A stretch of DNA of 64,000 bases from Candidatus Woesearchaeota archaeon (GTDB lineage Archaea; Nanobdellota; Nanobdellia; Woesearchaeales; WJIZ01): positions 14,330 to 78,329 of the forward strand of contig WJIZ01000044.1 of NCBI GenBank assembly GCA_014729995.1, written 5' to 3'. The notes beneath the pieces were generated by a model that did no database searches, had not been told where the DNA came from, and saw only the letters and a program-made list of their open reading frames with translations. Position numbers and translations under genes: made by a program. The number at the start of each line of letters is the position of its first letter. The stretch's first letter is position 1. Of the stretch, positions 8,064 to 53,271 are shown one piece after another.

Positions 8064-8064
8064 G

Positions 8065-8496: not shown

Positions 8497-8497
8497 A

Positions 8498-12387: not shown

Positions 12388-12408
12388 AAAAAGTTTTATA
12401 TATAAATA
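12388..12408 (+). promoter_or_regulatory. Putative archaeal BRE/TATA box for the Lrp-like gene (probably a leaderless mRNA)
   Basis: aaaaagttttatatataaat is centred about 27 nt upstream of the ATG at 12427. There is no SD between it and the start. Confidence 0.35.
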
Positions 12409-13020: not shown

Positions 13021-13052
13021 CATTCAATCAATAAAACCATTCAATCAATAAA
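13021..13052. repeat. Perfect 15-nt direct repeat (cattcaatcaataaa x2, period 17) straddling the pheT stop codon
   Basis: Copies at 13021-13035 and 13038-13052. The second contains the pheT stop (tca at 13041-13043 on the + strand). Confidence 0.8.
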
Positions 13053-15289: not shown

Positions 15290-15290
15290 T

Positions 15291-24925: not shown

Positions 24926-25869
24926 TCTCGCCCGCCCTTGTTTATAACAGAAACAGCTTTTTCATAGATAGCCTCTGACGTCAGGCCATATTTCTCATAA
25001 AGCTGCATTGGTCTGCCGGACTCGCCAAATTTGTCGTTTATCCCAATCTTGTTTACTTTGCATGGAAATTTGTCACAAAGCAGCTCTTGTACCGCACTTC
25101 CCATGCCGCCTATCACATTATGGTCTTCACAAGTGATTACTCTGCCGGTTTTCTTCACAGATTTTACTACCAGCCCACTATCCAGGGGCTTTATTGTATG
25201 TATATTTATGACCTCCGCAGAAACATCTTTCTTCTCAAGCTTTTCAGCAGCCTGAAGCGCTTCGTAGACCAGCGCTCCCGTAGCAAATATAGTTATATCC
25301 CTGCCTTTCCTTAGCAAATCGCCTTTCCCTAACCTAAACTTATAATTTTCTTTATGGAATATGGGCAGCTTAGCCCTTCCCAATCTTAGGTATACTGCCC
25401 CCTTGTATTTCGCAATTTCTTTGGTTGCTTTTTCTGCTTCAATAAAGTCGGCCGGCTGCACAACAGCCATACCAGGAATGGCCCTTAACATAGATATGTC
25501 CTCCAAAGACTGGTGGCTTGCTCCGTCCTCACCGGTAAGCAGGCCTGCATGTGATCCTATAATCTTTATATTAAGCTTTGAAATTCCCGCATGCAGCCTG
25601 ATCTGTGCATATCCGTTTCCAGTGATAAATACCGCAAAGGAGCAGGCAAAAGGAATCTTGCCTGATGCTGCCATCCCGGCTGCGGTCCCTATCATATCTT
25701 GTTCCGCGATGCCCATATTAAAAAATCTGTCAGGGTATTTTTCCCTGAATTTTGCCGACCTTGTAGACTCGCTTAAATCAGCATCAAGCACAACTATGTT
25801 CTTATCCCTGCCTATTGCGGCTATGGCCTTGCCAAATCCGTCTCTTGAAGCTTTCTTATCCGTCATCAT
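24922..25869 (-). CDS. tkt: Transketolase, C-terminal (pyrimidine-binding) subunit
   Basis: ASRDGFGKAI...VLDADLSESTR...FNMGIAEQDMIGTAAG. ATG at 25869 (the ORF track uses the TTG at 25884). Overlaps the end of the N-terminal subunit. Confidence 0.9.
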   Translation of the reverse strand: MMTDKKASRDGFGKAIAAIGRDKNIVVLDADLSESTRSAKFREKYPDRFFNMGIAEQDMIGTAAGMAASGKIPFACSFAVFITGNGYAQIRLHAGISKLNIKIIGSHAGLLTGEDGASHQSLEDISMLRAIPGMAVVQPADFIEAEKATKEIAKYKGAVYLRLGRAKLPIFHKENYKFRLGKGDLLRKGRDITIFATGALVYEALQAAEKLEKKDVSAEVINIHTIKPLDSGLVVKSVKKTGRVITCEDHNVIGGMGSAVQELLCDKFPCKVNKIGINDKFGESGRPMQLYEKYGLTSEAIYEKAVSVINKGGRE

Positions 25870-26680
25870 TAATCCCCTGGTCAAGATCTTTGAGGCATCC
25901 TTTAAGCTCTTCTGGAGTGCATGCCTTGCCGTGCCATTCCGCTTTATTTTCCATGCAGCAAATTCCCTTTCCTTTTATAGTATGGCAGATTATCATAGTA
26001 GGCTTGCCTTTTATAGAATCAGCTTTGTCCAGCGCCTCTTTGATTTGATTAAAATCATGCCCGTCTATTTCCATAGTATGCCAGCCGAATGCCTCCCATT
26101 TCTCCCTGATTGGCTTGATATTCATCACTTCTTCATTAAAGCCGTCTATCTGGAGGTTATTATTATCAAGAATTCCTGTTAGGTTATCTAGCTTATAATG
26201 CGAAGAAGTCATAGCAGCTTCCCATACTTGTCCTTCCTGTATCTCCCCATCGCCAAGCATCACATAAACCTTGTATTTTTTCCTGTCTGTTTTTCCCGCT
26301 AAAGCAATGCCGTTGGCAAAGCTCAATCCCTGTCCCAAGGGCCCTGTAGATGCCTCAACGCCCGGGCACCTTGCCATTTCCGGATGGCCCTGAAGCATAC
26401 TCCCCATTTTCCTTAGATTCATTAATTCCTTTCTTGGGAAATAGCCCGAATGCGCCAGTACAGAATATAATGCAGGGGCAGCATGCCCCTTGCTTAGCAC
26501 AAACCTGTCCCTGTCGGGCCAGTTGGGCTTTTTAGGATCGTGTCTCAGTTTATAAAAATACAAAGCTGTCATGATATCCGTAGCAGATAAGCTTCCTCCG
26601 GGATGCCCCGAGCCTGCTTCTGTAGTAATCCTTAATATGTCTAATCTTATCTCTTTCGCAATTGCGTGAAGTTGTTTCAT
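25856..26680 (-). CDS. tkt: Transketolase, N-terminal (TPP-binding) subunit
   Basis: SGHPGGSLSATDI, DRFVLSKGHAAPALY and GDGEIQEGQVWEA motifs. Confidence 0.9.
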   Translation of the reverse strand: MKQLHAIAKEIRLDILRITTEAGSGHPGGSLSATDIMTALYFYKLRHDPKKPNWPDRDRFVLSKGHAAPALYSVLAHSGYFPRKELMNLRKMGSMLQGHPEMARCPGVEASTGPLGQGLSFANGIALAGKTDRKKYKVYVMLGDGEIQEGQVWEAAMTSSHYKLDNLTGILDNNNLQIDGFNEEVMNIKPIREKWEAFGWHTMEIDGHDFNQIKEALDKADSIKGKPTMIICHTIKGKGICCMENKAEWHGKACTPEELKGCLKDLDQGINDDG

Positions 26681-33589: not shown

Positions 33590-35554
33590 TTACTTTCTGT
33601 CCTTAATCAAGACATCAACAACAGATGGGTCAGCTAAAGTTGTCGTGTTGCCTACATCATCCTTGCCTTCTGCAAGAGCCTTAAGAATTCTTCTCATGAT
33701 CTTCCCGCTTCTTGTTTTCGGCAAAGCATCTGCAAACTGTACCTTATCAGGCTTGGCTATCGGTCCTATTTCCTTTCCGACATGATTCCTCAGTTCAGTC
33801 ATCAGCTCTTCAGACTTTTCCACTCCTTTGTTCAATGTTACGAAACAATAAAGTGCCTGTCCTTTTACATCGTGCGGAAAAGGAACAACAGCTGCCTCAG
33901 CTACAGCATCATGGCTTACCAAGGCGCTCTCCACTTCAGCAGTCCCTATCCTGTGCCCGCTTACATTAATAACATCATCGATTCTTCCCATCAGCCATAT
34001 ATCGCCGTCCTCATCAATTCTCGCGCCGTCTCCTGCTGCGTAATATCCCTTGAATCTGCTCCAGTATGTGTCGATAAATCTCTGGTGATCCCCATAGACT
34101 GTCCTCATCAGGCCCGGCCAAGGCTTTTTCATCACCAGATAGCCGCCCTCGTTAACATCTGCTTTTGAACCATCCTCACGCAATACGCCGGGCTCGATTC
34201 CGAATAATGGCCTTCCTGCACAGCTCGGCTTCATTGTTATCGCTCCTGGTAAGGTTGTAATTAAGATTCCTCCTGTTTCTGTCTGCCACCATGTATCAAC
34301 TATAGGGCAGTTCTCTTTTCCTATATTTTTATAATACCACATCCATGCTTCCGGATTAATCGGCTCTCCCACTGTTCCCAGGAGCTTTAAGCTCGACAAA
34401 TCATGCTTATCTATAGGCTCAGTTCCAAATCTTGCAATAGCTCTTATTGCTGTTGGCGCTGTATAGAATATATTTACCTTGAATTTCTCGACAATCTGCC
34501 AAAACCTGTCATTATCCGGATAAGTAGGCACTCCCTCAAACATCATTGAAGTCGCTCCATTGGACAATGGCCCGTACACGATATAGCTGTGCCCTGTTAT
34601 CCAGCCCACATCAGCTGTGCACCAATAAATGTCTCCGTCATGATAGTCAAACACATACTTGAATGTCTGTGTAACATATGTTAGATATCCTCCTGTGGTA
34701 TGTAAGACGCCTTTGGGCTTGCCTGTTGTTCCTGACGTATACAATATAAACAACGGGTCTTCAGCATCCATATGCTCTGCCTCGCACTCATCTGAAATAT
34801 CACCTGAATTTAGCTCATCTTCCCAGTAATAGTCTCTTCCTTCCTTCATATTATGCTCCGCTTCCGCTCTCTTTGCAACTATCACAGATTCGATGCAGTC
34901 GACTCCCTGCAACGCTTCATCTGCGATCTTTTTCAGGGGAATCTTTTTCCCGGCGCGAAGGCCTCCGTCAGCAGTGAGCAAAATTTTACAGGTCGAGTCA
35001 AGAATCCTGTCCTTCAGGGATTCAGCGCTGAAGCCTGCAAACACGACAGAGTGCATTGCTCCAATTCTTGCACAGGCAAGCATCGCGACTGCTGCTTCCG
35101 GAATCATGGGCATGTATAAGCATACCCTATCACCTTTTTTTACCCCTTTCTTCTTGAGGACATTGGCAAATCTGCAAACTCGTTTGTGCAGCTCCTTGTA
35201 AGTTATCTTCTGCATATCATCTTCCGGCTCGCCCTGCCATATTATAGCTGTTTGGTCTCCTCTTTCATCAAGGTGCCTGTCCAGGCAGTTGTAGCAGACA
35301 TTTGTCTTACCTCCCTTAAACCATGTAAACTTGACATTTTCCTTGTCCCATGTAAAAACATCATCCCATTCCTTGAACCAATGCAGCTCCTTGGCCTTCT
35401 CGCTCCAGAATTTCCCAGGCTCCTTGATTGACTCTTCATAAAGCTTCTTATATTCCTCTTCAGATTTAATATAAGCTTTATTCCTGAAACTCTCTGGTGG
35501 CTCTATTCTTCTCTTCTCCTGGCTCATAGATTTTATAGTATTTTCTTCTGGCAT
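33590..35554 (-). CDS. acs: Acetyl-CoA synthetase (AMP-forming)
   Basis: [12 protein letters not shown], and C-terminal [14 protein letters not shown] containing the conserved regulatory Lys (codon 33701-33703). GAGGAGGGG SD upstream. Confidence 0.95.
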
Positions 35555-35663: not shown

Positions 35664-36867
35664 GTGACTTATAGAATTATTATGCATATCAATATCTTAA
35701 AAATTCTTAAGGAACTTGAAATCCACAAACTCGATACAGACTCATCGATTGAATGGCAAGACGAAAAAAGGAAGAAACAGATAAGAGAATTAATTGAAAG
35801 TTTGGAGGAACTAATAAAAGAAGGAGAGGTATCCAGTATAGATTTAAAACAATGTGAAAATCTAATTCTGTTCCTAAGAAAAGTACAGGAAGCTTATAAG
35901 GGAGACAAGAAAGCGAATGGGTGGATATCACAATTTCCGAGCGTTAAGACTGTTTATGAAATCGATTCAAAAATTGATACCATCGTTCATAACCTTCACT
36001 CTAAACTTAAACACTTGCCCTCTATAACCATTGTCATTTCAATGTACAATTCTAAACAGAGTGTAATTGATATCACTAGGGCCCTATTGTTTGATAGCAT
36101 TATAAAAAATGTTCCATCAGATGTAGAGATTATTTTAATAGACGATAATTCTCCATTAAGAAAAGAAACAGATCTAATCGTCAGAGAATTAATGAGTAAA
36201 AGAAATATTGTTTTTATTCGTAATAGCCTCAACTTAGGATTTTCAGGTAGCTACAATATCGGTTTAAGACGGGCGAGGGGAGATATAGTCTTCATGGCAA
36301 ATAGTGATATAAGAATAACACCGGGGTCAATTGAATCCATATCTGAAGTCATGCGATACCATCCAGGATGTGGCATTATTGGATGCATCTTTTCTGATAC
36401 GATGGGATACAAACCACAATTTAGTCCATATAAATTAGAGTCTTTAACTCAAGAAGAGATATCTAAATTGGACGCCTTCGCACAGAAATTTAGAAAAACC
36501 CATAATGGCTCAAGAGTTGTCAACTGGGTAATTGGAAGTTTTTTGGAATTCATAGAGATGTAATTCAAACAATAGGATATCTTGATGAAAATTTTAAGTT
36601 TGGTTATCATGAAGAAAGTGAATATTGCATACGTGCAGGAAAAGCCGGATTTTCATGCTTAATAGACAATACTACTTTTCTATATCATGTTGGAAGGCTA
36701 CTTTTAGTACTGTGCCGGTAAAAGCAAGTTTAGCAATGGCAACAAACACACTAAAATTAACAAGAAAATACGGCATTCTGAATTTGTTAAGATTTAGATG
36801 GCAATGGCATCTCTCCAAAAATGACAAAGGTAAGAATTCTAATAATCAATCCTATACCTCAAAATAG
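35664..36867 (+). pseudogene. Family-2 glycosyltransferase disrupted by two single-nucleotide frameshifts
   Basis: The GT2 core (ITIVISMYN...ILIDDNS...MANSDI) is in frame 0 up to 36563. The continuation GSFFGIHRDVIQTIGYLDENFKFGYHEESEYCIRAGKAGF is in a second frame, after a T6 run at 36539-36544. The tail ATFSTVPVKA... is in a third frame from about 36695. Confidence 0.6.
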
Positions 36868-37894
36868 CTCCAATCCCGCCAAGCCCATCCAATTTCTTTC
36901 CGCCTTCATGACCTGAAGATATTATATGCACCTTAGCATCCATAGAATCAGCATTTTTCATAAGCTGGTCTAATTTTTCATACTCGTTCTCCAGCCTTAA
37001 TCTTTCAATCAAGGAATCTGTAACCAGTAAAATGCCGGCCGCGCCGCTATTAACCGCATTCTCGACATCTTTTAGCCCATAGCTTGCTTTGCCGCCTGCC
37101 TTGATTTCCTTCATCAGTTCCTCAACAAGATTTATTTCACTTGTTATCCTGTCAGAAGCCAGCACTTTCTTTACTTCATCTCTTTTCAGCACTTCATTGA
37201 TAGCTGTCTTTCCTGCAGAAGAGCAAGTAGCCATTACCATTTTTTTCCTTAAGCTATCATCATTCAGGTTCTTCAGCAGCTCATCTTTCCAGAATGCGGG
37301 GCTTGCCATGATTATATTATCAAGCTTATAGCGCCGGTCATATTCCTTGAGTTTGCCTATTATCTCATTATAAAAATTGCTGGTCTTGGTCTCAACATCT
37401 TTCTTGGCTACATTGCCCTCAATATGTCCTAATATATCATAGCCGTATTTCTTCATCATTGCGAAAAAAGCCTCTTCCCTGTCAAAAACAACAATCAATA
37501 TGTTAGATATCTTTGAGCCGAAAGCCTCATTCAGCTTGTCTTTCTGGTAATTCAGCCATTTTTCTTTTTCAATGGAAAGCTCTGTCCCCTCCTCAACATT
37601 GAAAGAATGGTGTTCCCCTCTGGATATGTCCTCGGGCCCGCCTTCAATCACTCCCAGAACTCGAAGATTAGCCTGCCCTAACTCGACTTTCTCGGTCCTG
37701 ATCTTGATAAAGACGGGCTTCTTTGCTGTTTTCTGCTTCCTGTCCTCTTCCCCCCTTATCTTAATCTTCCTTATAGTCCTGCCGCTGACTAAATCTCCCT
37801 GCTCAATGACTTGGCTTAAATACCAGAGGTCATCCCGATTCTCTATCTTTATTTTCACATTCCCTTTACGAAAATCTGCATTAATTCTTTTCAT
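36839..37894 (-). CDS. pelA: Pelota (aDom34) mRNA surveillance / ribosome rescue factor
   Basis: IKIENRDDLWYLSQVIEQGDLVSGRTIRKI N-domain and an eRF1-like C-terminal part. Confidence 0.9.
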   Translation of the reverse strand: MKRINADFRKGNVKIKIENRDDLWYLSQVIEQGDLVSGRTIRKIKIRGEEDRKQKTAKKPVFIKIRTEKVELGQANLRVLGVIEGGPEDISRGEHHSFNVEEGTELSIEKEKWLNYQKDKLNEAFGSKISNILIVVFDREEAFFAMMKKYGYDILGHIEGNVAKKDVETKTSNFYNEIIGKLKEYDRRYKLDNIIMASPAFWKDELLKNLNDDSLRKKMVMATCSSAGKTAINEVLKRDEVKKVLASDRITSEINLVEELMKEIKAGGKASYGLKDVENAVNSGAAGILLVTDSLIERLRLENEYEKLDQLMKNADSMDAKVHIISSGHEGGKKLDGLGGIGAILRYRIDY

Positions 37895-38030: not shown

Positions 38031-39752
38031 ATGCTTGAAAGCTTATTTATTGAACTCAGCCTGATTATCATCTTAGCTACACTAATTGCAGCCATAGTAA
38101 GATTATTGAAACAGCCCCTGATTATTGCATATATACTCACAGGCATTATTGCAAGCCCGTATGTATTGGATATTGTGCCTCCCCCTGAAAATATTGAAAC
38201 TTTTGCCCATATAGGCATTGCATTGCTTCTATTTATGGTAGGATTAAGTCTCAATCTGAAAAACATAAAAGATGTAGGCAAGGTTGCAATTGCTACCGCT
38301 GTAGGCCAGGTAGTTTTTACAACTTCAGCTGGATTTCTAATCGGAAAATGGCTGGGATTTTCAACCATATCTTCAATTTATATCGCAATTGCCATTTCAT
38401 TTAGTAGCACCATTATAATTATGAAGCTGATATCAGATAAGGGAGATATAGAATCACTTTACGCACGTATAGCAGTTGGTTTCTTAATCGTGCAGGATAT
38501 AATAGCAGTATTTGCACTGCTCTTCGTTTCCTCTATATCAAAAGGCGCTGACTTTGCAAATCTCATAACCAACCTTCTCTTTGTGGGAGTGGGTCTGACA
38601 GTAGGATTATTTCTTATGAGCATCTACGTATTGCCAAAAATAACCAAATTGGTGGCAAAATCACAGGAGTATCTTCTTTTATTTTCACTTGGGTGGTGTT
38701 TTGCTATCTCTTCCATCTTCTATTATTTTAATTTTTCAATCGAAATTGGGGCATTATTAGCAGGAATCAGCCTGGCAGCATCTCCCTATAGATATGAAAT
38801 AAGCTCAAAACTCAGGCCGCTCAGGGACTTTTTTCTTATACTTTTTTTCATTTATCTTGGTGACCAGTTGATTTTTGGAGATATCAAATTGTATATTTTA
38901 CCGGTAATAATTTTATCAGCTTTGATTTTATTTGGCAATCCGTTAATAGTCCTGATATTGATGGGATTATCAGGATATACTAAGAAAAATAGTTTTTTTG
39001 CTGGATTAACAGTAGCCCAAATAAGCGAATTCTCACTGATACTCATTACTTTAGGTGTTGCAGTAGGCCATATTGATAAATCACTTTTGACCATAATTAC
39101 AATGATAGGCCTTATAACAATAACTGCATGTACTTATATGGTAACTTATTCAAAAAACATATATTCACATTTATCTAATTTTTTATCCATATTTGAAAAA
39201 AAAGGGGCAAAGATAGACGAACATAAATACCACCATGAAAAGGGATATGACATTCTATTGCTAGGTTACAATAGAATAAGCTATGACCTGGTTCATTCTT
39301 TGAAAAAATTAAGAAAAGATTTTCTGATTGTTGATTACAACCCGGAAACAATCAAAAAACTGGCGGAAGAGGGCCTTCATTGCAGGTATGGGGATGTCGG
39401 CGATATAGAACTTTTAAATGAGCTAAACCTGACAAAAGCTAAAATGGTAATTTCTACTGTGCCTGACTTTGACACAAACCTTCTGTTAATATCAAAAATA
39501 AGGGAGAGAAATAAGAAAGCAATAATCATTGTAATATCTCATCAGATAGATGAATCCTTAAAACTCTATGACGAAGGAGCAAGTTATGTAATAATGCCGC
39601 ATTTCCTTGGGGGGAGCCATGCGTCTGCAATGATTGAGGAAAACAAACTCGATATTAACAAGTTCCTTCAGCATAAGATAGCACACATAGAATATCTCAA
39701 AGAAAGGGATAAGCTTAAGAATATTCATCCAGCCCATGACCGGAAAAAATAA
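38031..39752 (+). CDS. Monovalent cation:proton antiporter (CPA2/Kef-type) with C-terminal RCK/TrkA-N domain
   Basis: N-terminal LIIILATLIAAIVRLLKQPLIIAYILTGIIASPYVLD and about 12 TM segments. A soluble Rossmann-like C-terminal domain follows (ILLLGYNRISYDLV...). Confidence 0.85.
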   Translation: MLESLFIELSLIIILATLIAAIVRLLKQPLIIAYILTGIIASPYVLDIVPPPENIETFAHIGIALLLFMVGLSLNLKNIKDVGKVAIATAVGQVVFTTSAGFLIGKWLGFSTISSIYIAIAISFSSTIIIMKLISDKGDIESLYARIAVGFLIVQDIIAVFALLFVSSISKGADFANLITNLLFVGVGLTVGLFLMSIYVLPKITKLVAKSQEYLLLFSLGWCFAISSIFYYFNFSIEIGALLAGISLAASPYRYEISSKLRPLRDFFLILFFIYLGDQLIFGDIKLYILPVIILSALILFGNPLIVLILMGLSGYTKKNSFFAGLTVAQISEFSLILITLGVAVGHIDKSLLTIITMIGLITITACTYMVTYSKNIYSHLSNFLSIFEKKGAKIDEHKYHHEKGYDILLLGYNRISYDLVHSLKKLRKDFLIVDYNPETIKKLAEEGLHCRYGDVGDIELLNELNLTKAKMVISTVPDFDTNLLLISKIRERNKKAIIIVISHQIDESLKLYDEGASYVIMPHFLGGSHASAMIEENKLDINKFLQHKIAHIEYLKERDKLKNIHPAHDRKK

Positions 39753-39838
39753 GCCAGGCACCGACAGATTTATATATAAAGATATTCATTTTTTAACTAT
39801 TCAATAGATAAAACTCTATAATCCAAAAGGTGAAAATA

Positions 39839-41041
39839 ATGAAATCGCAAATATTCGAAAGCCGTAAGAAATCCCAGTCTGGAATGAATGCTGCTGTGCT
39901 TGTAGCGATACTCGCTGCCTTAATTATCATTTACATAATATTTCTGCCATCCAATGAAAGGCTCGAGCTGGTTGACAATGAATCAGATTTCGGGGGTTCA
40001 GGGGAAGATGAAGACGATATCCTGCTTGAGGACAAAGAAATCATTATGCAGGTAATCGGCCAGGATGAGATAGAGCATGATTTCCCCTCTGTCAATCTCT
40101 ACACAAGCACAGAAGCAGAAAAATTAAGGGAAGAAAATTCAGTATATGTAAAAAACGGTTTGTTTGATGAGCAAAGCAAGCAGATAGATTTCAAGGTTAA
40201 AGACCCAGACAACACTAAAAACATACTGCTTAGCTTCGAAGCTAAAAAAAGGAAAGGTAGGCTAATAATTGTCCTGAACGACTATGAGATATATAACAAT
40301 AAAGTTGAAAAAGTTAATGTAGACCCCATAAAAATATCCAATGATTACATTGGAGAAGACAATCAACTCAGCTTGAGCGTTTCCGGAGTGGGGGCAGCGT
40401 TCTGGTCAACTAATGAGTATCTTCTCGAGAATTTTAAGATAACAGCAGATATTACAGACACCTCAACAAGAGAAGCAGAAATAAAGTTTGTGCTTTCGGA
40501 AGGGGAGGCAGGGAATATAGAAAAGTCAGAGCTAAGGTTCGTTCCTGACTGCCAGCCCGCTAACGTCGGCTTGCTGACCATACTCATAAACAGAAATGAG
40601 ATTTATTCTTCTGTGCCTGACTGCGGCATAGCCCGGCCTCTTGAATTTGCCCCCATGTATTTGTTAAGGGGGGAAAATAAGCTTACTTTCAGCACAGAAA
40701 GGGGCAGATATCTTATAGACCAGATAAAAATCACCAATGACTTGGAAGAGCAGCCTTCCTATACATATTTTTTCGAGCTAGAAAATGATGAGCTTGAGGA
40801 TATCGAAGATGAGCAAAAGAAAGTTAATCTCACATTCTACTTTGTGGATGATAAGGAAGACAAGGAAGCTGAAATCGTGATAAACGGCATGCGCAGCCTC
40901 TCCATGAGATTTCATGATGCTGCTGTCTGGAGCAGGATAATTCCCGCTGACTTCCTGGAAGCCGGCTCAAACTCGCTGAAGATAATACCCGAGGAAAGGA
41001 TGGAAGTAAGGAAGCTGCAGCTAACCCTGGAAGATGATTGA
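39839..41041 (+). CDS. Uncharacterised envelope protein P1 (N-terminal signal-anchor TM, acidic linker, beta-rich ectodomain with paired Cys)
   Basis: AGGTGA SD 4 nt before the ATG at 39839. One TM (NAAVLVAILAALIIIYIIFL). PDCQP...PDCG cysteine pair. No recognisable family motif. Confidence 0.6.
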   Translation: MKSQIFESRKKSQSGMNAAVLVAILAALIIIYIIFLPSNERLELVDNESDFGGSGEDEDDILLEDKEIIMQVIGQDEIEHDFPSVNLYTSTEAEKLREENSVYVKNGLFDEQSKQIDFKVKDPDNTKNILLSFEAKKRKGRLIIVLNDYEIYNNKVEKVNVDPIKISNDYIGEDNQLSLSVSGVGAAFWSTNEYLLENFKITADITDTSTREAEIKFVLSEGEAGNIEKSELRFVPDCQPANVGLLTILINRNEIYSSVPDCGIARPLEFAPMYLLRGENKLTFSTERGRYLIDQIKITNDLEEQPSYTYFFELENDELEDIEDEQKKVNLTFYFVDDKEDKEAEIVINGMRSLSMRFHDAAVWSRIIPADFLEAGSNSLKIIPEERMEVRKLQLTLEDD

Positions 41042-41076
41042 TTTTTAAGATGAAAAAAGAGGTCAAAGTTTAGAAG

Positions 41077-43590
41077 ATGTCATTATCATCCAGAGTCAGG
41101 GACGGCTACCGCACTAACAGGGACGCTGGCAGAAACAGGGCTGTTTCTTTTGTAAGGGCACCATTTACAGGTGCATGGCAAAGTGCCCGTGAAAGATGGA
41201 TAATCCTTATTTTTATTTTAGCAGCAGGCATAATCAACCTCTTTCTGGAAGTGTTTTGGCCGCAGACTCTGGGGTTCTACGGCATAAGCCTAAGCTACTT
41301 CACAAATACTATCCTTTCCACTGACTGGATAGGGCTGTACAATATTTTTCATTTTAACATTTTTTTCCTGTTGTTAATATTCATAATTATTAACATGAGA
41401 AACAATCGCCCCCACACATTAAGAATCTGGCTTACCTTCATCCTGATTATCTATCTGTTAAGCGCCATTCCCATCTTAAACACCTACATGGGAATAAGAA
41501 ATTTCTTTGAGCTGTTCTTATTGCTTGGAACAGCCATATACATGATGCGTCAAGATTTAGATGGCGAGGACTTGGTAGCCACTGTAACGTTGCTCTGGGT
41601 TTTCTATAATCTGTATATGTTCGGCATCCCTCTTAATATGGGAGGTCTAATCCATTTCTCGTTCTTTGTAGTCTTCTTTCTGACTTTCGGGATAAGCAGG
41701 TTGTTTGAACAGGACAGGACTCAGGTTAAATGGTGGCTCTTGTTTATAATTATTTTCGATGTCTTTATGCCTGCTTTTTTCGCAGATATCTATCCAAACC
41801 TGCCTATATCAACTTTACCGTTTCTGTTATTTGGTACATTAATCTTTGCACAGGCCTTTGCGCCATCCGGATGGAGCACTGCAGGCATCATTGTTGTAGT
41901 AGCTTTCTATTTTCTCCAGTTTGCCGCTGCCTCAGAAGCATTTCAGGATATGATTCCACAAAGGCAGGCAGGTGATTCTGAGATGGAACACAGAAAAATC
42001 TGGCATCTGGGCTACTGGTCATCAAAAATAGCAGGCATGATGAACCGCTCTGTTTACCATGCCTCAGGCCAGGACTACTATGCAAGCCAGGTTGACAGGA
42101 ACTCAAAGAAAAGGCTTGGCGTATATTTAGATGACATAAGCAGCAATTCCAAATACTATTATGATAACGAACGTATAATCATTGACGCCACTCTTACCGC
42201 AGAAAATTTTGTAACAGACGAGAAAGACCCTGTCTTCGAGGAAATAGGGATTTTATTGGGATGCGAAGCATGTAATAGGGATAAATGCATCAAAGGGGAA
42301 ATCTATCCAAGGTCAGAATACCAGATAGAAAGCTATGAAGTAGAAAACATACAGTGCATATTCCAGCCCTGGCAGATGAAAAAAGGCAGCTATGACATAA
42401 AATTCATGGCAGAATTTAATTTCCGCACAGAAGCATACCTCAAGCGCTACTTTGTTTCAAAGGAAAGGATAGAGTCATTGAGAAGAAAGCAGCTCATCAA
42501 AAAAGATGAAGACATCTTAAAGATAAATGATATTTCTGACAGGAATCCAGTTGCCAAAAACAGCGTGGGACCGGTACAGATAGGGGTTTCAGACAGAATT
42601 CCTGTAGTTATAAAATTAGACAGCCAGAGCACCAATGAGCATCTCTTCGGGATACAACTGGTAAATGAATGGAATGGAGAGATAGGCAAGATAACAAACA
42701 TGGAGTTTTACCTGCCCGAAGGCATAGAACTGGTTGGGGGCAAGTGTGATTTCCACATGGAAAATGCCCCTATAGCAGAAGAAAGGTTCGAAGGCTATGA
42801 AAGGTACCAGCTAACTGACAGATATAACCCCAAATTATATAATAAAATACAAGACAGGACTGAACAGGACTGCTGGATAAAGATAGACCGTGAAGATATC
42901 GGGAATGTTTTGCAGCCAGGAGACATAACAACAAGGTACTTTCGCATGCTCACAGAATATGAATACATCCTGGAAGAGTCTCTTCCAATAACAATAAGAG
43001 AGCCCGAAGGCTTCAGTGTAAAAATAACAGCGGCCGTAAATGAGATTCTTGACTCAACCTCAAAAATAAAATGCACAGCAAAAAATGACAAAGAATTCCC
43101 TAGTGACGTAACTTTCACATTATACAAAAATGGAAGTAAAGAATCATCAAAAAGCAAACAATGCCTTGACAATAAATGCGAAGATATCTTTAAATATAGC
43201 TTTAAAGCAGGAACAAACCTGAAATGCGAAGCAGGCTACACAGAAGATGATGAACAAAGGCTGGTAGCAGCATACACAACAGTAGAGAACTCACCAGCAA
43301 AAATAAAAAATATTGAATTCGAGAAGGAGAAAGTAAATAAGGGAGAAAACCTGGTCTGCAGTGTCGAAACAGCAGACAAGGACAATGATCATGTAACGGT
43401 CAGGTTTGAATTTGAAGGCCTCTACATAGCCTCCTCGCAAAAAGCATGTAACAACAAATGTAAAGTCGAAATCCCGACTGGCAGCGCTGAAAAAGAAACA
43501 GTAGTAACATGCATAGCAACAGCTTATGACACCCAAAAAGGAGAACAGGGCTCAGCAAAAGCAAAAATAATAGTGCAAAATGATCAATAA
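41077..43590 (+). CDS. Uncharacterised polytopic membrane protein P2 (~10 TM) with a ~530-aa Cys-rich extracytoplasmic C-terminal region
   Basis: Hydrophobic segments between about aa 40 and 295, then a soluble region ending in two tandem ~90-aa four-Cys modules. Its stop overlaps the start of P3. Confidence 0.6.
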   Translation: MSLSSRVRDGYRTNRDAGRNRAVSFVRAPFTGAWQSARERWIILIFILAAGIINLFLEVFWPQTLGFYGISLSYFTNTILSTDWIGLYNIFHFNIFFLLLIFIIINMRNNRPHTLRIWLTFILIIYLLSAIPILNTYMGIRNFFELFLLLGTAIYMMRQDLDGEDLVATVTLLWVFYNLYMFGIPLNMGGLIHFSFFVVFFLTFGISRLFEQDRTQVKWWLLFIIIFDVFMPAFFADIYPNLPISTLPFLLFGTLIFAQAFAPSGWSTAGIIVVVAFYFLQFAAASEAFQDMIPQRQAGDSEMEHRKIWHLGYWSSKIAGMMNRSVYHASGQDYYASQVDRNSKKRLGVYLDDISSNSKYYYDNERIIIDATLTAENFVTDEKDPVFEEIGILLGCEACNRDKCIKGEIYPRSEYQIESYEVENIQCIFQPWQMKKGSYDIKFMAEFNFRTEAYLKRYFVSKERIESLRRKQLIKKDEDILKINDISDRNPVAKNSVGPVQIGVSDRIPVVIKLDSQSTNEHLFGIQLVNEWNGEIGKITNMEFYLPEGIELVGGKCDFHMENAPIAEERFEGYERYQLTDRYNPKLYNKIQDRTEQDCWIKIDREDIGNVLQPGDITTRYFRMLTEYEYILEESLPITIREPEGFSVKITAAVNEILDSTSKIKCTAKNDKEFPSDVTFTLYKNGSKESSKSKQCLDNKCEDIFKYSFKAGTNLKCEAGYTEDDEQRLVAAYTTVENSPAKIKNIEFEKEKVNKGENLVCSVETADKDNDHVTVRFEFEGLYIASSQKACNNKCKVEIPTGSAEKETVVTCIATAYDTQKGEQGSAKAKIIVQNDQ

Positions 43591-44566
43591 AACAATTGCA
43601 GCATTAATCCCTTTTTTGCTAATCATAGCTTCATGCTCTCCTCGTGCAGATAATACGGAAGAAAAGCTGCAGGCAGGCACAGCAGGTCTGGAATTGGAAT
43701 TTATAAAGCAGGGAATTCCAAAACAAATAACAGAACAAAACCAGCTCTACGGCATGATCGAATTAAGAAACAAGGGCTACTATGATATAAATGATGCGCT
43801 GCTGGTTCTTTCACTGGAAAAGGATTTATTGGAAATCGATTCATGGGACATGCCTGAAACTTTCAGGAAAAATTCTGACAACACAGTATCTTTCAGCCTT
43901 AAGGGCAAGTCACTTTCCAACAGCAACGGGGAAAAGCAGGTAGTAACCGCAGTAATAAATTCAAGAGAAATAGATGAGACAAGGAACAAGATAGAGTCAA
44001 TAATATCTGCAGCAGCATGCTACCCTTATTCTACTGTCTTCTCAGGCACTATATGCATAGATACAGACCCCAATAATTTGCGCATAGCTGAAAAAACATG
44101 TGAAACCAGGGATATATTAGCCTCAAGCCAGGGCGCGCCCGTAGCAATAACCAGGATTGAACAGAAAGTATTACCAGGAAGTTCAAGCAGTAATATAAGG
44201 CTTCAGTTTACTGTTTATGCAGAAAATAAAGGCAGGGGCATAATCATAGATCCTTATAGGTATAAAGAAATTTGTTTAGGAAAAAATATCAGAAAGCAGG
44301 ATTATAATTCACTTATTATGGAATCCTTCGAATTTTCCGGCTATATGTACGAATATGGTGAGGATTACGAGATAGACTGCATCCCAAATCCAATGAAAGA
44401 GACAAAAGATAGCTATTATACAAAATGTACCTTAAAAGAAATCTCTTCTATTCCGAAAAGCAGGCTTACTTTCGAAACACCTTTAGTCATACAGCTTTCC
44501 TATGGGTACAGCACAACAGAAACCCACGAGATATCCATACTTAATAATGAACAGGAAATTATTTAG
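43580..44566 (+). CDS. Uncharacterised lipobox lipoprotein P3 (paralog family with P4 and P5)
   Basis: Signal peptide ending LLIIASC (lipobox). Shares motifs with P4/P5 (AAACYPY..ICID, SQGAPVAITRI, FTVYAENKGRG). Confidence 0.65.
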   Translation: MINKTIAALIPFLLIIASCSPRADNTEEKLQAGTAGLELEFIKQGIPKQITEQNQLYGMIELRNKGYYDINDALLVLSLEKDLLEIDSWDMPETFRKNSDNTVSFSLKGKSLSNSNGEKQVVTAVINSREIDETRNKIESIISAAACYPYSTVFSGTICIDTDPNNLRIAEKTCETRDILASSQGAPVAITRIEQKVLPGSSSSNIRLQFTVYAENKGRGIIIDPYRYKEICLGKNIRKQDYNSLIMESFEFSGYMYEYGEDYEIDCIPNPMKETKDSYYTKCTLKEISSIPKSRLTFETPLVIQLSYGYSTTETHEISILNNEQEII

Positions 44567-44612
44567 TTCAGCGAAACTTTTATATACAAATTTATTAGGT
44601 AATAGTAAAAAA

Positions 44613-45563
44613 ATGAAAAAGGTCATATTTTGCTTGTTTTTGGTTTCATTACTCATATTTGCTTCCTGCAATAGGAGCAGAAACAGGGAGGGAGAAGACC
44701 TGAATGATGAAGAATATAGAAGAGGGGACAAAGGATTAAGGCTCGAATTCGTAGAGGGTGCTCCTCCTGACAGGATATATACCGGTAATGAGATGGATAT
44801 CATTGTGGAAGTCAGGAATATGGGTGCATATCCAAAGACAGATTCCTTTGACGGCAGGCTTGAAATATATGGTTTTGATGAGAAAGCTTTCTCGGGAGAA
44901 AGGTGGGACGGCTCTCCTTTCCTGAGCCCCGAATTGCAGGGCAGGAGCCCCCGCTCCCCCAGGGGCGGCAGGGATGTCAAAAGGTACCAGATCGATAGGG
45001 TGGATACTTTGTTCGATTCAGAATTCTATGAGCCTACAGTCATAGCAGCAGCCTGCTATAAATATAGGACAATAGCAGACGCTTCTATATGCGTAGACCC
45101 TGAACCGTATTCTATTTTCGATGAAGACAAAGTATGCAATCTGAGGGAGGGCGGGGAAAGCTACTCATTGGGAACGCAAGGCGCTCCTGTTGCAGTTACC
45201 CGAATAAAAGAAGAAATCGCCAGCCAGGGTATACATTTCAGCATTTATATAGAAAATGTAGGAAAAGGAAAAGTAATTGATGAAAGGGCAATAAACGAAT
45301 GTCCTCTTGAACTGGATTATAATGATGTAGACAAAATTTTGGTCAGGGTCAGCCTGCCCTGGGATTCTGCCCCAGACTGCCAGCCAAAGGGCGATTACCG
45401 CGATCCTGTGAGGCTGGATGAGAGCGGAACCGGCTTCATCTTTTGCACATTCAGAAAACCGGATTCAAAGTCTGCTATCGAAACAAACTTGCATATAGAG
45501 CTTGATTACCGCTATCTGGACTGGGAAGAAAAAAAGATAAGAATAATCAATCTGGATAGGTAA
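44613..45563 (+). CDS. Uncharacterised lipobox lipoprotein P4
   Basis: MKKVIFCLFLVSLLIFASC lipobox. Motifs AAACYKY..ICVD, TQGAPVAVTRI and FSIYIENVGKG. The ATG at 44613 is chosen over the track start at 44502, which would overlap P3. Confidence 0.65.
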   Translation: MKKVIFCLFLVSLLIFASCNRSRNREGEDLNDEEYRRGDKGLRLEFVEGAPPDRIYTGNEMDIIVEVRNMGAYPKTDSFDGRLEIYGFDEKAFSGERWDGSPFLSPELQGRSPRSPRGGRDVKRYQIDRVDTLFDSEFYEPTVIAAACYKYRTIADASICVDPEPYSIFDEDKVCNLREGGESYSLGTQGAPVAVTRIKEEIASQGIHFSIYIENVGKGKVIDERAINECPLELDYNDVDKILVRVSLPWDSAPDCQPKGDYRDPVRLDESGTGFIFCTFRKPDSKSAIETNLHIELDYRYLDWEEKKIRIINLDR

Positions 45564-45609
45564 GCTTTATATAGTTAAAAATTTCATTTTTAAAATGGAG
45601 GCTGTTACG

Positions 45610-46548
45610 ATGAAATTAAAAACTCTGTCAATAATGTTCATTATCGCAATATTTATACTCTCGGGCTGCACGCAGGAGGATGATTCCGGCATCAAAACAA
45701 AGGATCCCTTCATAGGCGGAACAGAAGCTGTGCTTATAAGTTTCCTGGAAGATGCCCCCCTTCCTGAAGTCAGGGCTGGCGGAGATTTCCCGTTTGATGT
45801 TGTAGTCAGGCTCAAGAACGAGGGCGAACACGCCATACCAAAAGATGAGCTTACTGTCACAATCTCAGGAATAAATGCGCAGGAATTTAATAAAGAAGAA
45901 TCTGAATTGGTAAAAAGTCCCGAAGAAGACTTAGATGCAAGAAGAAAGGAGAACAGCGATATAATAGATTCTAATCCTGTCTTTGTAGAATATCAGGATT
46001 TCAACAGGGCAGAAGATTTCTCAGGCAATACCTACACTATCAGGGCAGATGTGTGCTATGGATATGCAACAGAAGCAGTATCTACTATATGCATAAAATC
46101 AAACAATCTCGATGATAAGGAAGGGGTATGCACAGTTAACGAAGACAAACAAGTTCACAGCTCCGGGGCGCCTGTTAAAATGGAAAACATGAAAGAGACA
46201 GCTACAGCCAAAAACAAGGTAAGGTTCAGTTTCGATATTGTGCACAAAGGCAACGGCAGGATTTATAAAAAGGATTCAGACTGTGGAAAAGAGGACAGAA
46301 GGGCAAATGAAGACAAGGTTTGGGTAGAGGTAAGCACCGGTCTGGAAGGGCTGGAATGTACAGGCCTTAGCGGCGGAACAGGAAATTCCGGGTTCGCTAC
46401 GCTGTACAGCGGAGATAAGAGGATAACCTGCACCCAGACCGTGGACACAACCTCAGACTATGAAAAGACCGTGGAAATAACAGTGGAATATGAATATGAG
46501 GATAACGCAGAAACATCTGTTACAGTATTAAGTGCAGCAGGGAATTAA
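45610..46548 (+). CDS. Uncharacterised lipobox lipoprotein P5
   Basis: MKLKTLSIMFIIAIFILSGC lipobox. GGAGG lies 8 nt upstream of the ATG at 45610 (an ATG at 45595 is also possible). Motifs ADVCYGY..ICIK, SSGAPVKMENM and FSFDIVHKGNG. Confidence 0.65.
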   Translation: MKLKTLSIMFIIAIFILSGCTQEDDSGIKTKDPFIGGTEAVLISFLEDAPLPEVRAGGDFPFDVVVRLKNEGEHAIPKDELTVTISGINAQEFNKEESELVKSPEEDLDARRKENSDIIDSNPVFVEYQDFNRAEDFSGNTYTIRADVCYGYATEAVSTICIKSNNLDDKEGVCTVNEDKQVHSSGAPVKMENMKETATAKNKVRFSFDIVHKGNGRIYKKDSDCGKEDRRANEDKVWVEVSTGLEGLECTGLSGGTGNSGFATLYSGDKRITCTQTVDTTSDYEKTVEITVEYEYEDNAETSVTVLSAAGN

Positions 46549-47504
46549 TTTCTTTCACCTATAAGGCCAACCTCTGCAAGAAATGCCTCCAATTGGACAA
46601 ATTCATCGCTTCCTTCTGTGATTCTGTATTCTGCTTCCCCGCATTTACTGATAAGCTCAAGCTGTTTTCTTCCGGTAATCTCCAAGTTGAGTATTTCCTT
46701 CTGGATCTGCTTGATTAAGTCAATCCCCGAAAGCCCATGTTTCAGCATAGTGTCCAGAAGCTTTTTCCTCGCATCAATAAAATTGTTATTAAGAGCTAAT
46801 TTCAATATATTGATAACTTCCTTCGGCTTGGCAGAAGACGCGATTGAAAAAATCTTTTCTTCAGTAATGTCTTTCCCAAGCACAGAGCTTGCCTGTAATA
46901 TGTTCTCTAATTTTCTGCAGTCCCCCCCTGAGACTTCGATCAGCGCATCCTTCCCCTTACCCTCTATTCTCAAGCCCTCTTCCCTTGCTATTTTATCTAT
47001 TATTAACATTAAGTCTTTCATGTCAAGCGGCTTAAACCTGAAGACCGCGCATCTGCTCTGTATAGGGTCTATTATCTTGCTTGAATAGTTGCAGCCAAGG
47101 ATAAACCTGCACGTAGCAGTATAGTTCTCCATTGTTCTCCTTAATGCCTGCTGCGCTTCCTTGGTTAAGGCATCAGACTCATCAAGGTATATTATTTTAA
47201 AAGGCACATCCCCGATGGACTTTGTCCTTGCAAAATCCTTGACCTTAACCCTGATAACATCTATCCCTCTTTCATCAGAAGCATTCAGCTCTAGAAAATT
47301 CTGCCTCCACTGCTCTTTATAAAGCTGCTTTGCAATGACAAGTGCAAGTGTGGTCTTCCCCACTCCTGCCGGGCCGGCAAATAATAGATGCGGCATATTC
47401 TGCTGCTCTACAAAGCTCTTTATCCTGCTGACTATCTCTTTCTGCCCCTTGATATCAGAAAAATTCTGTGGCCTGTACTTCTCGGTCCAGATTGCATGCT
47501 CCAT
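46545..47504 (-). CDS. rfcS: Replication factor C small subunit
   Basis: WTEKYRPQNF, GPAGVGKTT, DESD and SRC (IQSRCAVFRF) motifs. No intein. Confidence 0.95.
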   Translation of the reverse strand: MEHAIWTEKYRPQNFSDIKGQKEIVSRIKSFVEQQNMPHLLFAGPAGVGKTTLALVIAKQLYKEQWRQNFLELNASDERGIDVIRVKVKDFARTKSIGDVPFKIIYLDESDALTKEAQQALRRTMENYTATCRFILGCNYSSKIIDPIQSRCAVFRFKPLDMKDLMLIIDKIAREEGLRIEGKGKDALIEVSGGDCRKLENILQASSVLGKDITEEKIFSIASSAKPKEVINILKLALNNNFIDARKKLLDTMLKHGLSGIDLIKQIQKEILNLEITGRKQLELISKCGEAEYRITEGSDEFVQLEAFLAEVGLIGERN

Positions 47505-51501: not shown

Positions 51502-53271
51502 ATGGAAAGATATGATATGAAAAAGCTTGAAGACGCGGTAAGAACATACAGGGAAATATTCAAAAAAATAAAGGGGAAAACAGTTTTGGTGGTTTTGGAC
51601 ATAAGCCAGGCAAAAGCATTTTACTCACTGGCGCCGTTGTCAAAAGCAATCCATGAGCTGAATGCCGACATGAATGTGGCTGTAATAAAAAAGCAGTCAC
51701 CAAACCTTAATGTGCTGAAGGATGTCTGGAGCTGTCACACCAGCCTAAAGCACGGGTTAAGAAACAGGCACACAAAAGCGCTTAATGATTTCATAGCCCT
51801 TGCAGATAAGAAATGCGAAAATAATATAAGAAAGATATTCGAGCCTCCCGAGATATATCTTAATGCTTCTAAAAACAGCTTTGAAGGCTCTTTCTCCCTA
51901 CCTTACTCTGTTTCATGGTATAAAGATTACAGGAAAAAAGACCTGGAAAATACCGCAAAAATCATCTGGAAACAGGTATTCAACATAAGAAAAAATGAAA
52001 AAATCGCGATAGGTTTCGAATTGCTAAGAAAAAAGTCAGATATGGGCCTGCCAATTCAGGATTATCTTGACTCATTTCATATAAGCTATGCTATGATGTC
52101 AGCAGTAAAGGATCATGAAATATCCATGTCAGCTTCAACACCAAGGAAGTCCCAGCTCGCAGATCCAGAAAGAATATCAGAATTGAAAACAACCCTGCTG
52201 GGCTGCGAGATTTGCAAGGAAAACAGCGCAGCCGTCTTCAGGAAATTTAAGATCCTGTCTTCTCTCCTGAAGATTAACAGGCTGGGAATACCCGGCGCTG
52301 TTTTTGGGATAAGGGGGAAGGGATACTCAGGCAGGCATTATTTCGGGGAATATATTGGCTATCCCTCCAAAAACAAAAAAACAAGATGGCTCTCCCCCGA
52401 CCAGATGCTTTACAAGCTGGATTACTACCCCCAGACTGCATTGGATGACACTCCACCTAAGTCAAGAGTGGGGTTTACCGAAACTCTGCCCATAGATACT
52501 TTCATAAAAACAGGCAGTATAGACTGGTTAAAGATGCAGAAAAAAGATCAAAAAATCGTTGACATTATCTGCAAATCGCAGTATATCATGGTAGAAGGCA
52601 AAAAATTCGGAAAATACCGTACAAGATTAAAGGTAGGGATCGTTTCTCCAGGAGAAAAGAGAAGGCGTTTCCGTGGTTCAGATGTTGAAACCCGGAATTT
52701 GATAAATCCCTATTTCAGGAAAAAAGGGATATTAGCTGGAACAATGGCCAACATACCCGGAGGAGAGGCTTTCGGCACGCCCGAATATGTCAGGGGCCAG
52801 TTCATTGGTGATGTAGTTATAAGCCTTGATCAAAGCTATGTGCTTTCTGCAAAAAATCCTATCATTGTTAACTGCCGCGGAAACAATTACACAGTCATTA
52901 AGGGCCCGAAAAATATCATAACTAAATTTAAAGAAAAGAAAAAAGATGCCTGGGAGAAATTGCTAAAACAGGAAAAAGCAAGGTCTTTGCCGAAAAAAGT
53001 TATAGATATCAATAAGAAAAACTTTAATAATATAGGCGAATTCGCAATCAATACAAATCCTGAAGCAGAATTATGCAATTATCTCATTGTTAATGAAAAA
53101 ATAGCTAATATGATTCATATAGCGCTTGGCTCAGGTTTTGACGCTGACCGCGCCACATACTATCATACAGATATTGTGATAGACTCGCCAAGGCAGCAGC
53201 TCGATATATACGGTGTAAGCAGAAATGGGGAAAAGTATTGGATACATAAAAAAGGAAAATTTGTTGTTTAA
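51502..53271 (+). CDS. Expanded M29-like (aminopeptidase T/S family) protein
   Basis: The C-terminal third aligns by eye with the next gene and with M29 motifs (NIPGGEAFGTP, NIGEFAINTN, IHIALG, YHTDIVIDSP). It has about 250 extra N-terminal and inserted residues. Confidence 0.6.
   Translation: MERYDMKKLEDAVRTYREIFKKIKGKTVLVVLDISQAKAFYSLAPLSKAIHELNADMNVAVIKKQSPNLNVLKDVWSCHTSLKHGLRNRHTKALNDFIALADKKCENNIRKIFEPPEIYLNASKNSFEGSFSLPYSVSWYKDYRKKDLENTAKIIWKQVFNIRKNEKIAIGFELLRKKSDMGLPIQDYLDSFHISYAMMSAVKDHEISMSASTPRKSQLADPERISELKTTLLGCEICKENSAAVFRKFKILSSLLKINRLGIPGAVFGIRGKGYSGRHYFGEYIGYPSKNKKTRWLSPDQMLYKLDYYPQTALDDTPPKSRVGFTETLPIDTFIKTGSIDWLKMQKKDQKIVDIICKSQYIMVEGKKFGKYRTRLKVGIVSPGEKRRRFRGSDVETRNLINPYFRKKGILAGTMANIPGGEAFGTPEYVRGQFIGDVVISLDQSYVLSAKNPIIVNCRGNNYTVIKGPKNIITKFKEKKKDAWEKLLKQEKARSLPKKVIDINKKNFNNIGEFAINTNPEAELCNYLIVNEKIANMIHIALGSGFDADRATYYHTDIVIDSPRQQLDIYGVSRNGEKYWIHKKGKFVV

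Follow-up and report, generated by a model that had tools for sequence, protein, structure and literature searches.

A conserved five-gene cluster of Woesearchaeota-type archaea encodes a candidate cell-contact surface module with an exchangeable tip

Introduction

In a genome assembly of a Candidatus Woesearchaeota archaeon (GCA_014729995.1), five genes for envelope proteins, here called P1 to P5, follow one another on the same strand of contig WJIZ01000044.1 and lie between the genes for pelota and the small subunit of RFC. The window referred to throughout is the whole 64,000-nucleotide stretch of this contig that was analysed (positions 14,330 to 78,329 of the forward strand), and coordinates are counted from its first letter. 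Few archaea are as diverse or as poorly understood as the DPANN archaea of the Woesearchaeota type, of which almost none are in culture and for which no host or means of attachment is known. Here, we show that the gene set is conserved near-universally in a large archaeal lineage and has gone undescribed so far, and that the distal end of its polytopic membrane protein, P2, is a position swapped between relatives, some of which carry peptidoglycan hydrolases there. On this basis we tentatively favour, with a little less than even confidence, the reading that the cluster encodes a cell-contact surface module of these archaea that would be adhesive rather than lytic in the genome of the window.

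Layout of the locus

The region had been interpreted once before from its letters and translated open reading frames (ORFs) alone (the sequence-only reading), as five consecutive, tightly packed genes on one strand. The layout is as that reading described it: all five ORFs are on the + strand (Table 1), P2 and P3 overlap by 11 nt, and the other gaps measure 35, 46 and 46 nt. The ORF of P1 opens at a GTG at 39830, and the ATG at 39839 is preferred as its start because a GGTGA Shine-Dalgarno-like site (39829-39833) lies 5 nt ahead of that ATG. Similarly, the ORF of P4 opens at 44502, and 44613 is taken as the start because it is the position on which the lipobox and the orthologs agree, each ortholog beginning at the MKK... 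signal peptide. In front of P5 there is a GGAGG site at 45597-45601.

Table 1. Coordinates of the cluster, its subdomains, promoter-like boxes and immediate flanks in the window
Feature	Position	Strand	Remarks
pelota	36839-37894	-	Housekeeping flank
Cation/proton antiporter	38031-39752	+	Flank
TTTATATA box	39769-39776	+	63-70 nt before P1 start; TATA-like, putative promoter
P1	39839-41041	+	400 aa ORF, directly upstream of P2
P2	41077-43590	+	837 aa ORF; membrane-embedded base with external stalk and distal module
P2 membrane domain	41137-41946	+	Residues ~21-290, ~9 helices
P2 conserved ectodomain core	42088-43011	+	Residues 338-645, two beta-sandwiches
P2 distal module	43012-43590	+	Residues 646-837, two Ig/PKD-like sandwiches, eight Cys
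P3	43580-44566	+	328 aa ORF
TTTATATA box	44579-44586	+	27-34 nt before P4 start; probably its own promoter (putative)
P4	44613-45563	+	316 aa ORF
TTTATATA box	45566-45573	+	37-44 nt before P5 start
P5	45610-46548	+	312 aa ORF; alternative ATG 45595
RFC small subunit	46545-47504	-	Housekeeping flank

Conservation of the gene set

The order P1, P2 and three lipoprotein genes is kept in 15 distinct loci from metagenome-assembled genomes (MAGs) and is seen on every contig read, and the cluster lies nearly always between a divergent pelota gene and a convergent RFC gene, even with lipoproteins just 20-27% identical to P4. A scan of metagenomes with a hand-made, back-translated motif returned 66 matches, 56 of them loci in which the P2 core is kept; the ten left out comprise nine without any match to the P2 core and one, L039, with short fragments only. 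Among the metagenomic loci with enough flanking sequence, a lipoprotein paralog lies directly downstream of P2 on the same strand in 32 of 32, P1 lies directly upstream of P2 in 26 of 30, and a divergent pelota gene is found upstream in 16 of 20. Exactly three lipoprotein genes separate P2 from RFC in 14 of 16 metagenomic loci, four and five being seen once each, and in nearly all the related loci compared the P2 stop and the P3 start overlap or abut. The set is therefore conserved far beyond the genome of the window, and a search of the literature found no account of the gene cluster or of the architecture in which P2 serves as a carrier.

P1 is not obligatory upstream of P2, because in one sub-lineage (L035, L076 and L079) a FEN1-like gene occupies its place; L076 and L079 also encode a shorter lipobox protein (250-261 aa) further upstream of P2. 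RFC no longer adjoins the cluster in L014, a divergent relative in which a 504-aa gene on the opposite strand (7387-8901, - strand of that locus), with a faint match to CARDB, sits between the first and second lipoprotein genes.

Such constancy of position could also arise if the five genes encoded independent surface proteins with no common function, kept adjacent by general synteny of the region. The flanking genes (pelota, RFC, a PRC-barrel protein, TyrRS and an M16 peptidase) are indeed conserved in order as well, and P4 and P5 probably have promoters of their own. We nevertheless consider this explanation very unlikely: adjacency persists where the flanks change (L014, L016 and L035/L076/L079), a lipoprotein follows P2 in all 32 of the loci counted above, down to about 20% identity, the coding overlap of P2 and P3 is itself conserved, and three of the genes are paralogs, with a fourth that probably shares their domain build.

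P2: membrane base, stalk and family

P2 has eight hydropathy peaks and, in its AlphaFold model, about nine membrane helices. The model has a mean predicted local distance difference test (pLDDT) score of 77, rising to 85-90 across the ectodomain, and the linker that follows the helices is poorly predicted. It puts the K/R-rich N-terminus inside the cell and the C-terminal part outside. The sequence-only reading had proposed about ten helices and a Cys-rich ectodomain of about 530 aa; the ectodomain stands, at about 540 aa and with all 14 Cys of the protein, and the helix count comes down to about nine.

Conservation across the family is concentrated in the ectodomain core, which in the model folds into two beta-sandwiches (residues 348-461 and 500-641), both closing with a long hairpin, and which carries four family-wide Cys (396, 427, 557 and 599) and the motifs FxFxT, GP(V), NxWxG and YxY. 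Past the core, the distal module of the window's P2 is modelled as two further sandwiches (strands at 647-735 and 742-832); its profile matches of the PKD/fn3 class are sub-threshold, and it gives weak matches to immunoglobulin (Ig) light chains and FN3-like domains. A Pfam search found no peptidoglycan hydrolase domain in the window's P2, which is a homolog of the carrier part alone of the hydrolase-bearing relatives described below.

With the P2 alignment as query, an exhaustive search by profile gathered 2124 cluster representatives at E<=1e-3, of which 479 reach E<=1e-30, and all named members come from Woesearchaeota or Nanoarchaeota. A word-indexed search had returned 13 relatives of P2 and 29 of P4, then 58 by profile, all of them unnamed or 'hypothetical' and from Woesearchaeota/Nanoarchaeota MAGs. 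The tiny P2 family that this search and a scan of reference genomes implied (13 proteins in six genomes) was an artefact of sensitivity, as the exhaustive search made clear.

Within the P2 family, conservation is weakest in the membrane domain, with only H193 (81%) and P248 (88%) kept. H193 (41653-41655) and D228-F229 of a DFF motif (41758-41763) are invariant among close relatives, and a role as mere anchor accounts for neither. Searched alone, the membrane domain has no family match in Pfam or NCBIfam at E<=1 to 10 and none to PDB sequences by profile. Two members of the P2 family bear the names 'EpsG family protein' and 'MFS transporter' at NCBI (P0113 and P0186; MBW2989477.1 and MEA2037888.1). 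At E<=1 to 10, neither these two proteins nor the membrane domain of the window's P2 matches a profile for EpsG, Wzy or MFS proteins, and the names are probably misannotations.

These features bear on a second alternative, in which P2 would be a membrane enzyme or transporter: its nine-helix domain would be the active part, and P3-P5 would serve it as substrates or binding partners. Examples would be a lipoprotein-processing enzyme, a polymerase or ligase of glycans, or a channel that takes in the wall fragments set free by hydrolase tips. The recurrence of H193 and of the DFF motif speaks for it, as do the three lipoprotein genes that always follow P2 and the NCBI labels on single homologs, taken with the proviso that we could not reproduce them. 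Set against this are the lack of any match to EpsG, MFS or another Pfam/NCBIfam family even at the permissive thresholds above, the empty profile search of PDB sequences, the weak conservation of the very domain that would have to be active, and the finding of no ATPase or binding-protein fold, and we judge an enzyme or transporter to be quite unlikely.

The exchangeable tip of P2

The 150 best hits of the profile search were combined with the 13 P2 proteins of the word index, giving 156 distinct proteins of which 140 contain the double-sandwich core. In about 30 of these 140 the core is followed by no more than 0-22 aa; most have an extension of about 200 aa, and the longest reaches 560 aa. 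A Pfam scan of 93 extended members found SLT domains in 16, NlpC/P60 in three, Amidase_2, Peptidase_M23 and Glucosaminidase in two each and Amidase_3 in one, with PKD and fn3 domains also among the matches. About a quarter of the extended relatives thus end in a murein hydrolase, and the hydrolase domain is always C-terminal of the P2 core. Their catalytic motifs are largely in place: in eight SLT segments read, ES is kept in seven, G(L/I)MQ in all eight and AYNxG in most, and the M23 domain keeps HxxxD and HxH.

Two such proteins can be placed in their genomic context. One P2 tipped with SLT and M23 domains is encoded in the same cluster adjoining pelota, and a glucosaminidase-tipped P2 belongs to a cluster of the same five genes, flanked by pelota on one side and RFC on the other. 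Because they occupy the same cluster next to pelota/RFC, the hydrolase-bearing proteins of these two loci (L016 and L018) are positional orthologs of the window's P2, and the distal end of P2 is a swappable position of the family.

The tip domain found in the window is used elsewhere too, recurring 13-32 times in giant proteins annotated as PKD (scoring as PKD_3/PKD_2). These proteins, among them P0074, P0079, P0086 and P0088, are 2000-3600 aa long, carry their copies in tandem and look like giant adhesins. P0079 also bears MopE metal-binding motifs and a C-type lectin domain.

Lipoproteins P3-P5 and their likeness to the stalk

P3, P4 and P5 each begin with a Sec-type signal peptide that has a lipobox at its end (IIASC with Cys19, IFASC with Cys19 and ILSGC with Cys20, respectively), which bears out the earlier description of the three as lipobox lipoproteins. 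The F at position -3 of P4 is a mild deviation, its orthologs having L, I or V there; the lipobox Cys itself is kept in the P3, P4 and P5 orthologs of six related loci and at a level of at least 90% in a 24-sequence family alignment. P3-P5 are presumably anchored to archaeol through this Cys. Archaeal lipobox proteins bear thioether-linked archaeol by way of AliA/AliB, and AliA occurs in DPANN (Hong et al., PMC12462473). P3-P5 and their orthologs share with such lipoproteins a Sec-type signal ending in [LIVF][ASTI][GAS]C; they differ in that their mature parts fit no described lipoprotein family, and their lipidation is predicted.

The three are mutual paralogs (BLASTP E values of 7e-32, 9e-15 and 3e-8), P5 being the most divergent, and carry six further conserved Cys. 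The AlphaFold model of P4 (pLDDT 86.4) is a double beta-sandwich. Substrate capture, one of the roles offered by the sequence-only reading, loses ground here, as P4 does not have the fold of a solute-binding protein and the cluster contains no family match to a solute-binding protein, permease or ATPase.

Several lines of comparison connect the lipoproteins with the P2 core. Both families have four invariant motifs in the same order, FxFxT, GPV, NxWxG and a terminal YxY in P2 corresponding to CYxYxT, GAPV, NxGxG and a terminal YxY in P3-P5. When profiles of the P2 core and of the mature lipoproteins are aligned by a greedy procedure, the motifs fall in register within a collinear match of about 250 columns (P = 0.06), and broader profiles bring the same comparison to P = 0.01. 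The models of the P2 ectodomain and P4 have the same order of secondary-structure elements, with terminal hairpins. The P2 stalk and P3-P5 are therefore likely to share a double-sandwich build, and common ancestry is plausible. A likeness between the GPV segment of P2 and the GAPV motif of P3-P5 had been remarked upon before; it is found in register in the collinear alignment, at P values of 0.06-0.01 only.

The earlier suggestion of a fold common to all five proteins does not extend to P1, for which no kinship to P4 or P2 is detectable. Homology of P1 and P2 was rejected. The PDCQP string, proposed as a link between P1 and P4, is present in both, but their profile-profile probability is 0.2%, which is chance level, and among P1 orthologs its Cys alone is invariant; as a sign of homology the motif was set aside.

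P1

P1 has a single hydrophobic helix (residues 18-36, by hydropathy) behind a basic N-terminus, in agreement with its earlier description as signal-anchored. The helix is followed by an acidic linker and three repeats of about 100 aa with a beta pattern (78-203, 204-306 and 307-400). In hhalign comparisons, repeats 1 and 2 are homologous (95%, E 3e-8) and the kinship of repeat 3 to them is merely suggestive. Two Cys, 238 and 262, are invariant.

The N-terminus of P1 (...MNAAVLIAIxSALIILYIIFLPS; residues 16-36, window 39884-39946) is unusually conserved for a simple anchor, in orthologs as well, and bears a loose resemblance to class III (pilin-like) signal peptides. The position just before it is variable (G, A or Q), and no gene for a pilus ATPase or platform protein occurs within the cluster.

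Searches for known families and folds

None of the five proteins has a match above threshold in Pfam, NCBIfam or PHROGs, and profile searches of PDB sequences with the alignments of P1, the lipoproteins and P2 gave nothing significant, the tail of P2 alone yielding its weak Ig light-chain matches. Foldseek searches with the models (P2 and P4 against PDB, P2 against BFVD) returned generic tandem beta-sandwich proteins at TM-scores of 0.1-0.2, namely integrin legs, macroglobulins, FN3 receptors and strings, the Haloferax S-layer and phage tail proteins. Neither approach thus produced a confident match to a known system. The view that none of the five belongs to a recognisable family is upheld, as is the broader picture of an uncharacterised, extracytoplasmic gene set anchored by membrane helices and lipid; the beta-rich character attributed to all the soluble parts is seen in the AlphaFold models of P2 and P4.

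The appearance of an S-layer protein among the generic matches leads to the main rival of a contact module, a structural envelope coat in which the five proteins would form a membrane-proximal, S-layer-like lattice or scaffold, with the tips of P2 as accessory cargo and no dedicated contact role. Several observations fit such a coat: the cluster is unchanged where P2 lacks a distal module, conservation sits in the stalk core and not in the tip, the combination of one base with three paralogs looks stoichiometric and is almost invariant, and the all-beta-sandwich build resembles that of Ig-domain S-layer proteins. The closest comparison, the csg protein of Haloferax volcanii (PDB 7ptp), likewise consists of a string of beta-sandwiches outside the membrane with a lipid anchor; the match is nevertheless generic (TM-score about 0.12) and unaccompanied by any sequence relation, and the cluster differs in having five components, including a polytopic base, and few sequons. 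Archaeal S-layer glycoproteins are usually rich in N-glycosylation sequons, and the proteins here have 0-2 each. No S-layer domain of Pfam or NCBIfam was found in the five proteins, for which the 7ptp match (TM-score 0.12), a generic multi-Ig resemblance, is the sole structural likeness to an S-layer, and TM-scores of 0.1-0.2 are not specific. Furthermore, expression of S-layer genes with annotations of their own has been reported for Woesearchaeota MAGs (PMC11606122), which counts against a coat made by this cluster. Taken together, we rate a structural coat as unlikely, if a serious contender.

Transcription units

The octamer TTTATATA occurs at 14 sites in the window (between 4118 and 63832) against 5.7 expected, often shortly upstream of gene starts; examples are the sites at 12395, 37919, 39769, 44579 and 45566. 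It fits the archaeal TATA-box consensus, is probably the TATA box of the window's organism, and could serve to map transcription units across the window. Three copies fall in the cluster, before P1, P4 and P5 (Table 1).

Upstream boxes were compared in eight related loci using the pattern TTTA[TA]ATA. A box precedes P1 in seven of the eight and P4 in all eight (at -15 to -47), and nearly all P1, P4 and P5 genes have one, mostly at -30 to -47. Before P3 the pattern is absent from the window and from the eight related loci, and before P2 there is one weak variant. Because conserved TATA-like boxes precede P1, P4 and P5, the arrangement suggests three transcription units, P1-P2-P3, P4 and P5, which makes the single five-gene operon of the sequence-only reading doubtful. 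A scan with a sigma-70 promoter and terminator model, which is not applicable to archaea, gave counts at chance level.

Chromosomal setting

The cluster lies in an ordinary chromosomal stretch rather than an island. Further flanking genes encode the PRC-barrel protein, TyrRS and M16 peptidase mentioned above, and elsewhere in the window there are genes for SecY, for both PheRS subunits and for two acetyl-CoA synthetases, together with a shikimate-pathway operon. The housekeeping context is constant across loci and a PHROGs search of P1-P5 gave no match, so nothing was found that would assign the cluster to a phage or mobile element.

Some neighbouring features deserve a record of their own. 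The PheRS genes (13041-16820, -) adjoin a long co-directional run of genes (16860-25884, -), among them those for EPSP synthase (18519-19787) and for a fusion of dehydroquinase with shikimate dehydrogenase (21357-22829); on related contigs these have DAHP synthase and DHQ synthase as neighbours, and the presence of this pathway is notable for a DPANN archaeon with a presumably reduced genome. An ADP-forming acetyl-CoA synthetase (CoA-binding and ATP-grasp; 29265-31952, -) carries a fused GNAT acetyltransferase domain at its C-terminus, and an AMP-forming acetyl-CoA synthetase lies nearby (33590-35554, -). Finally, a 589-aa ORF at 51502-53271 (+) has no Pfam match; locus L002 has a 586-aa gene without a family match in the same relative position, after an M24 peptidase gene.

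A putative cell-contact module

In the model we favour, P2 would sit in the cytoplasmic membrane on its nine or so helices, N-terminus inside, and project a stalk, built from two conserved beta-sandwiches with disulfide bonds, to whose end the exchangeable distal module is attached. P3, P4 and P5, each presumably a double beta-sandwich like the stalk, would most likely form a hetero-oligomer that packs beside it outside the membrane, on its outer face, and single-pass P1, with its three beta-rich repeats, would be a frequent fifth partner. The distal end of P2 would be the working end: the two PKD/Ig-like domains found in the genome of the window would bind, the hydrolase tips of relatives would cut bacterial peptidoglycan, and the module as a whole would present lineage-specific tips to a partner or prey cell. 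Because its tip consists of two PKD/Ig-like domains, the window's P2 would represent a binding, non-lytic version, and it is the pairing of a presumably binding tip here with peptidoglycan-cutting tips in relatives that points to a cell-contact apparatus. An 'adhesin or host-contact apparatus' was among the functions suggested by the sequence-only reading, and this suggestion gains support from the same-locus P2 orthologs that end in peptidoglycan hydrolases.

Membrane-anchored hydrolases that serve a surface machine have a precedent in Gram-positive conjugation. The VirB1-like proteins PrgK, TraG of pIP501 and CwlT have a membrane anchor followed by SLT and NlpC/P60-type domains and open peptidoglycan locally for the machine, in which the hydrolase-tipped P2 proteins may resemble them. 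They differ in having one helix in place of a nine-helix base and in belonging to ATPase-driven secretion, whereas the P1-P5 cluster contains no ATPase or coupling protein and lies in an archaeal chromosomal housekeeping context.

Hydrolases of this kind have been met in these archaea before. 'Large lytic murein transglycosylases' were noted in Woesearchaeota (AR20, Lake A MAGs) by Vigneron et al. (PMC9723730), who suggest predation on bacteria, and Strock et al. (PMC12352652) report that peptidoglycan hydrolases are prominent in Nanoarchaeota. The proteins found here with SLT, M23, NlpC/P60, amidase or glucosaminidase domains are homologous to the window's P2 and are very probably the same proteins that those papers counted by catalytic domain. 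In the parts considered here the two reports describe the hydrolase domain only; the nine-helix base, the double-sandwich core, the partner genes and the optional nature of the hydrolase tip do not feature in them.

The hydrolases might instead act at home, on a murein- or pseudomurein-like polymer of the archaeon's own wall during growth or division, and the tips do span the types of enzyme (transglycosylase, amidase and endopeptidases) that bacteria use to turn over their own walls. This is highly improbable, given that there are no wall-synthesis genes in the window or in the loci read, that the window's P2 and many of its relatives lack a hydrolase altogether, and that archaeal peptidoglycan hydrolases are reported overwhelmingly from lineages without pseudomurein (PMC12352652).

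A number of observations weigh against the cell-contact module. The window's P2 has no hydrolase, and the roughly 30 of 140 relatives that are tip-less keep the cluster, so that the function of the core is independent of the tip and could be purely structural. The membrane domain has a conserved His that a pure anchor role does not explain. P1 gives way to a FEN1-like gene in one sub-lineage, P4 and P5 are apparently under their own, putative promoters, and, as the cluster is constantly in the same housekeeping neighbourhood, part of its gene-order conservation is general lineage synteny. Homology of the P2 stalk and P3-P5 is statistically insecure (P = 0.01-0.06, with a default hhalign probability below 5%), and the case that the five proteins assemble draws on adjacency and shared build alone.

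Implications

The work links a nearly universal gene set, a defined protein architecture and scattered reports of 'large murein transglycosylases', and shows these transglycosylases to be tips that a conserved surface platform may carry or lack. In addition, it offers five sizeable unannotated protein families as structural targets and corrects the misleading names 'EpsG family' and 'MFS transporter' for members of the P2 family. From the cell-contact reading it would follow that tip type tracks host type (bacterial versus archaeal), that the platform is found at contact sites, and that hydrolase-tipped ectodomains digest bacterial sacculi.

A bolder version, which we regard as possible but on the doubtful side, is that of an order-wide cell-contact machine in which a base and stalk are surrounded by three lipid-anchored paralogs and the tip decides what is bound or breached. 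If this were true, peptidoglycan-cutting tips would mark the lineages that live on or prey on bacteria, and the host type of members of this very large, uncultured group could be predicted from the tip that their genomes encode.

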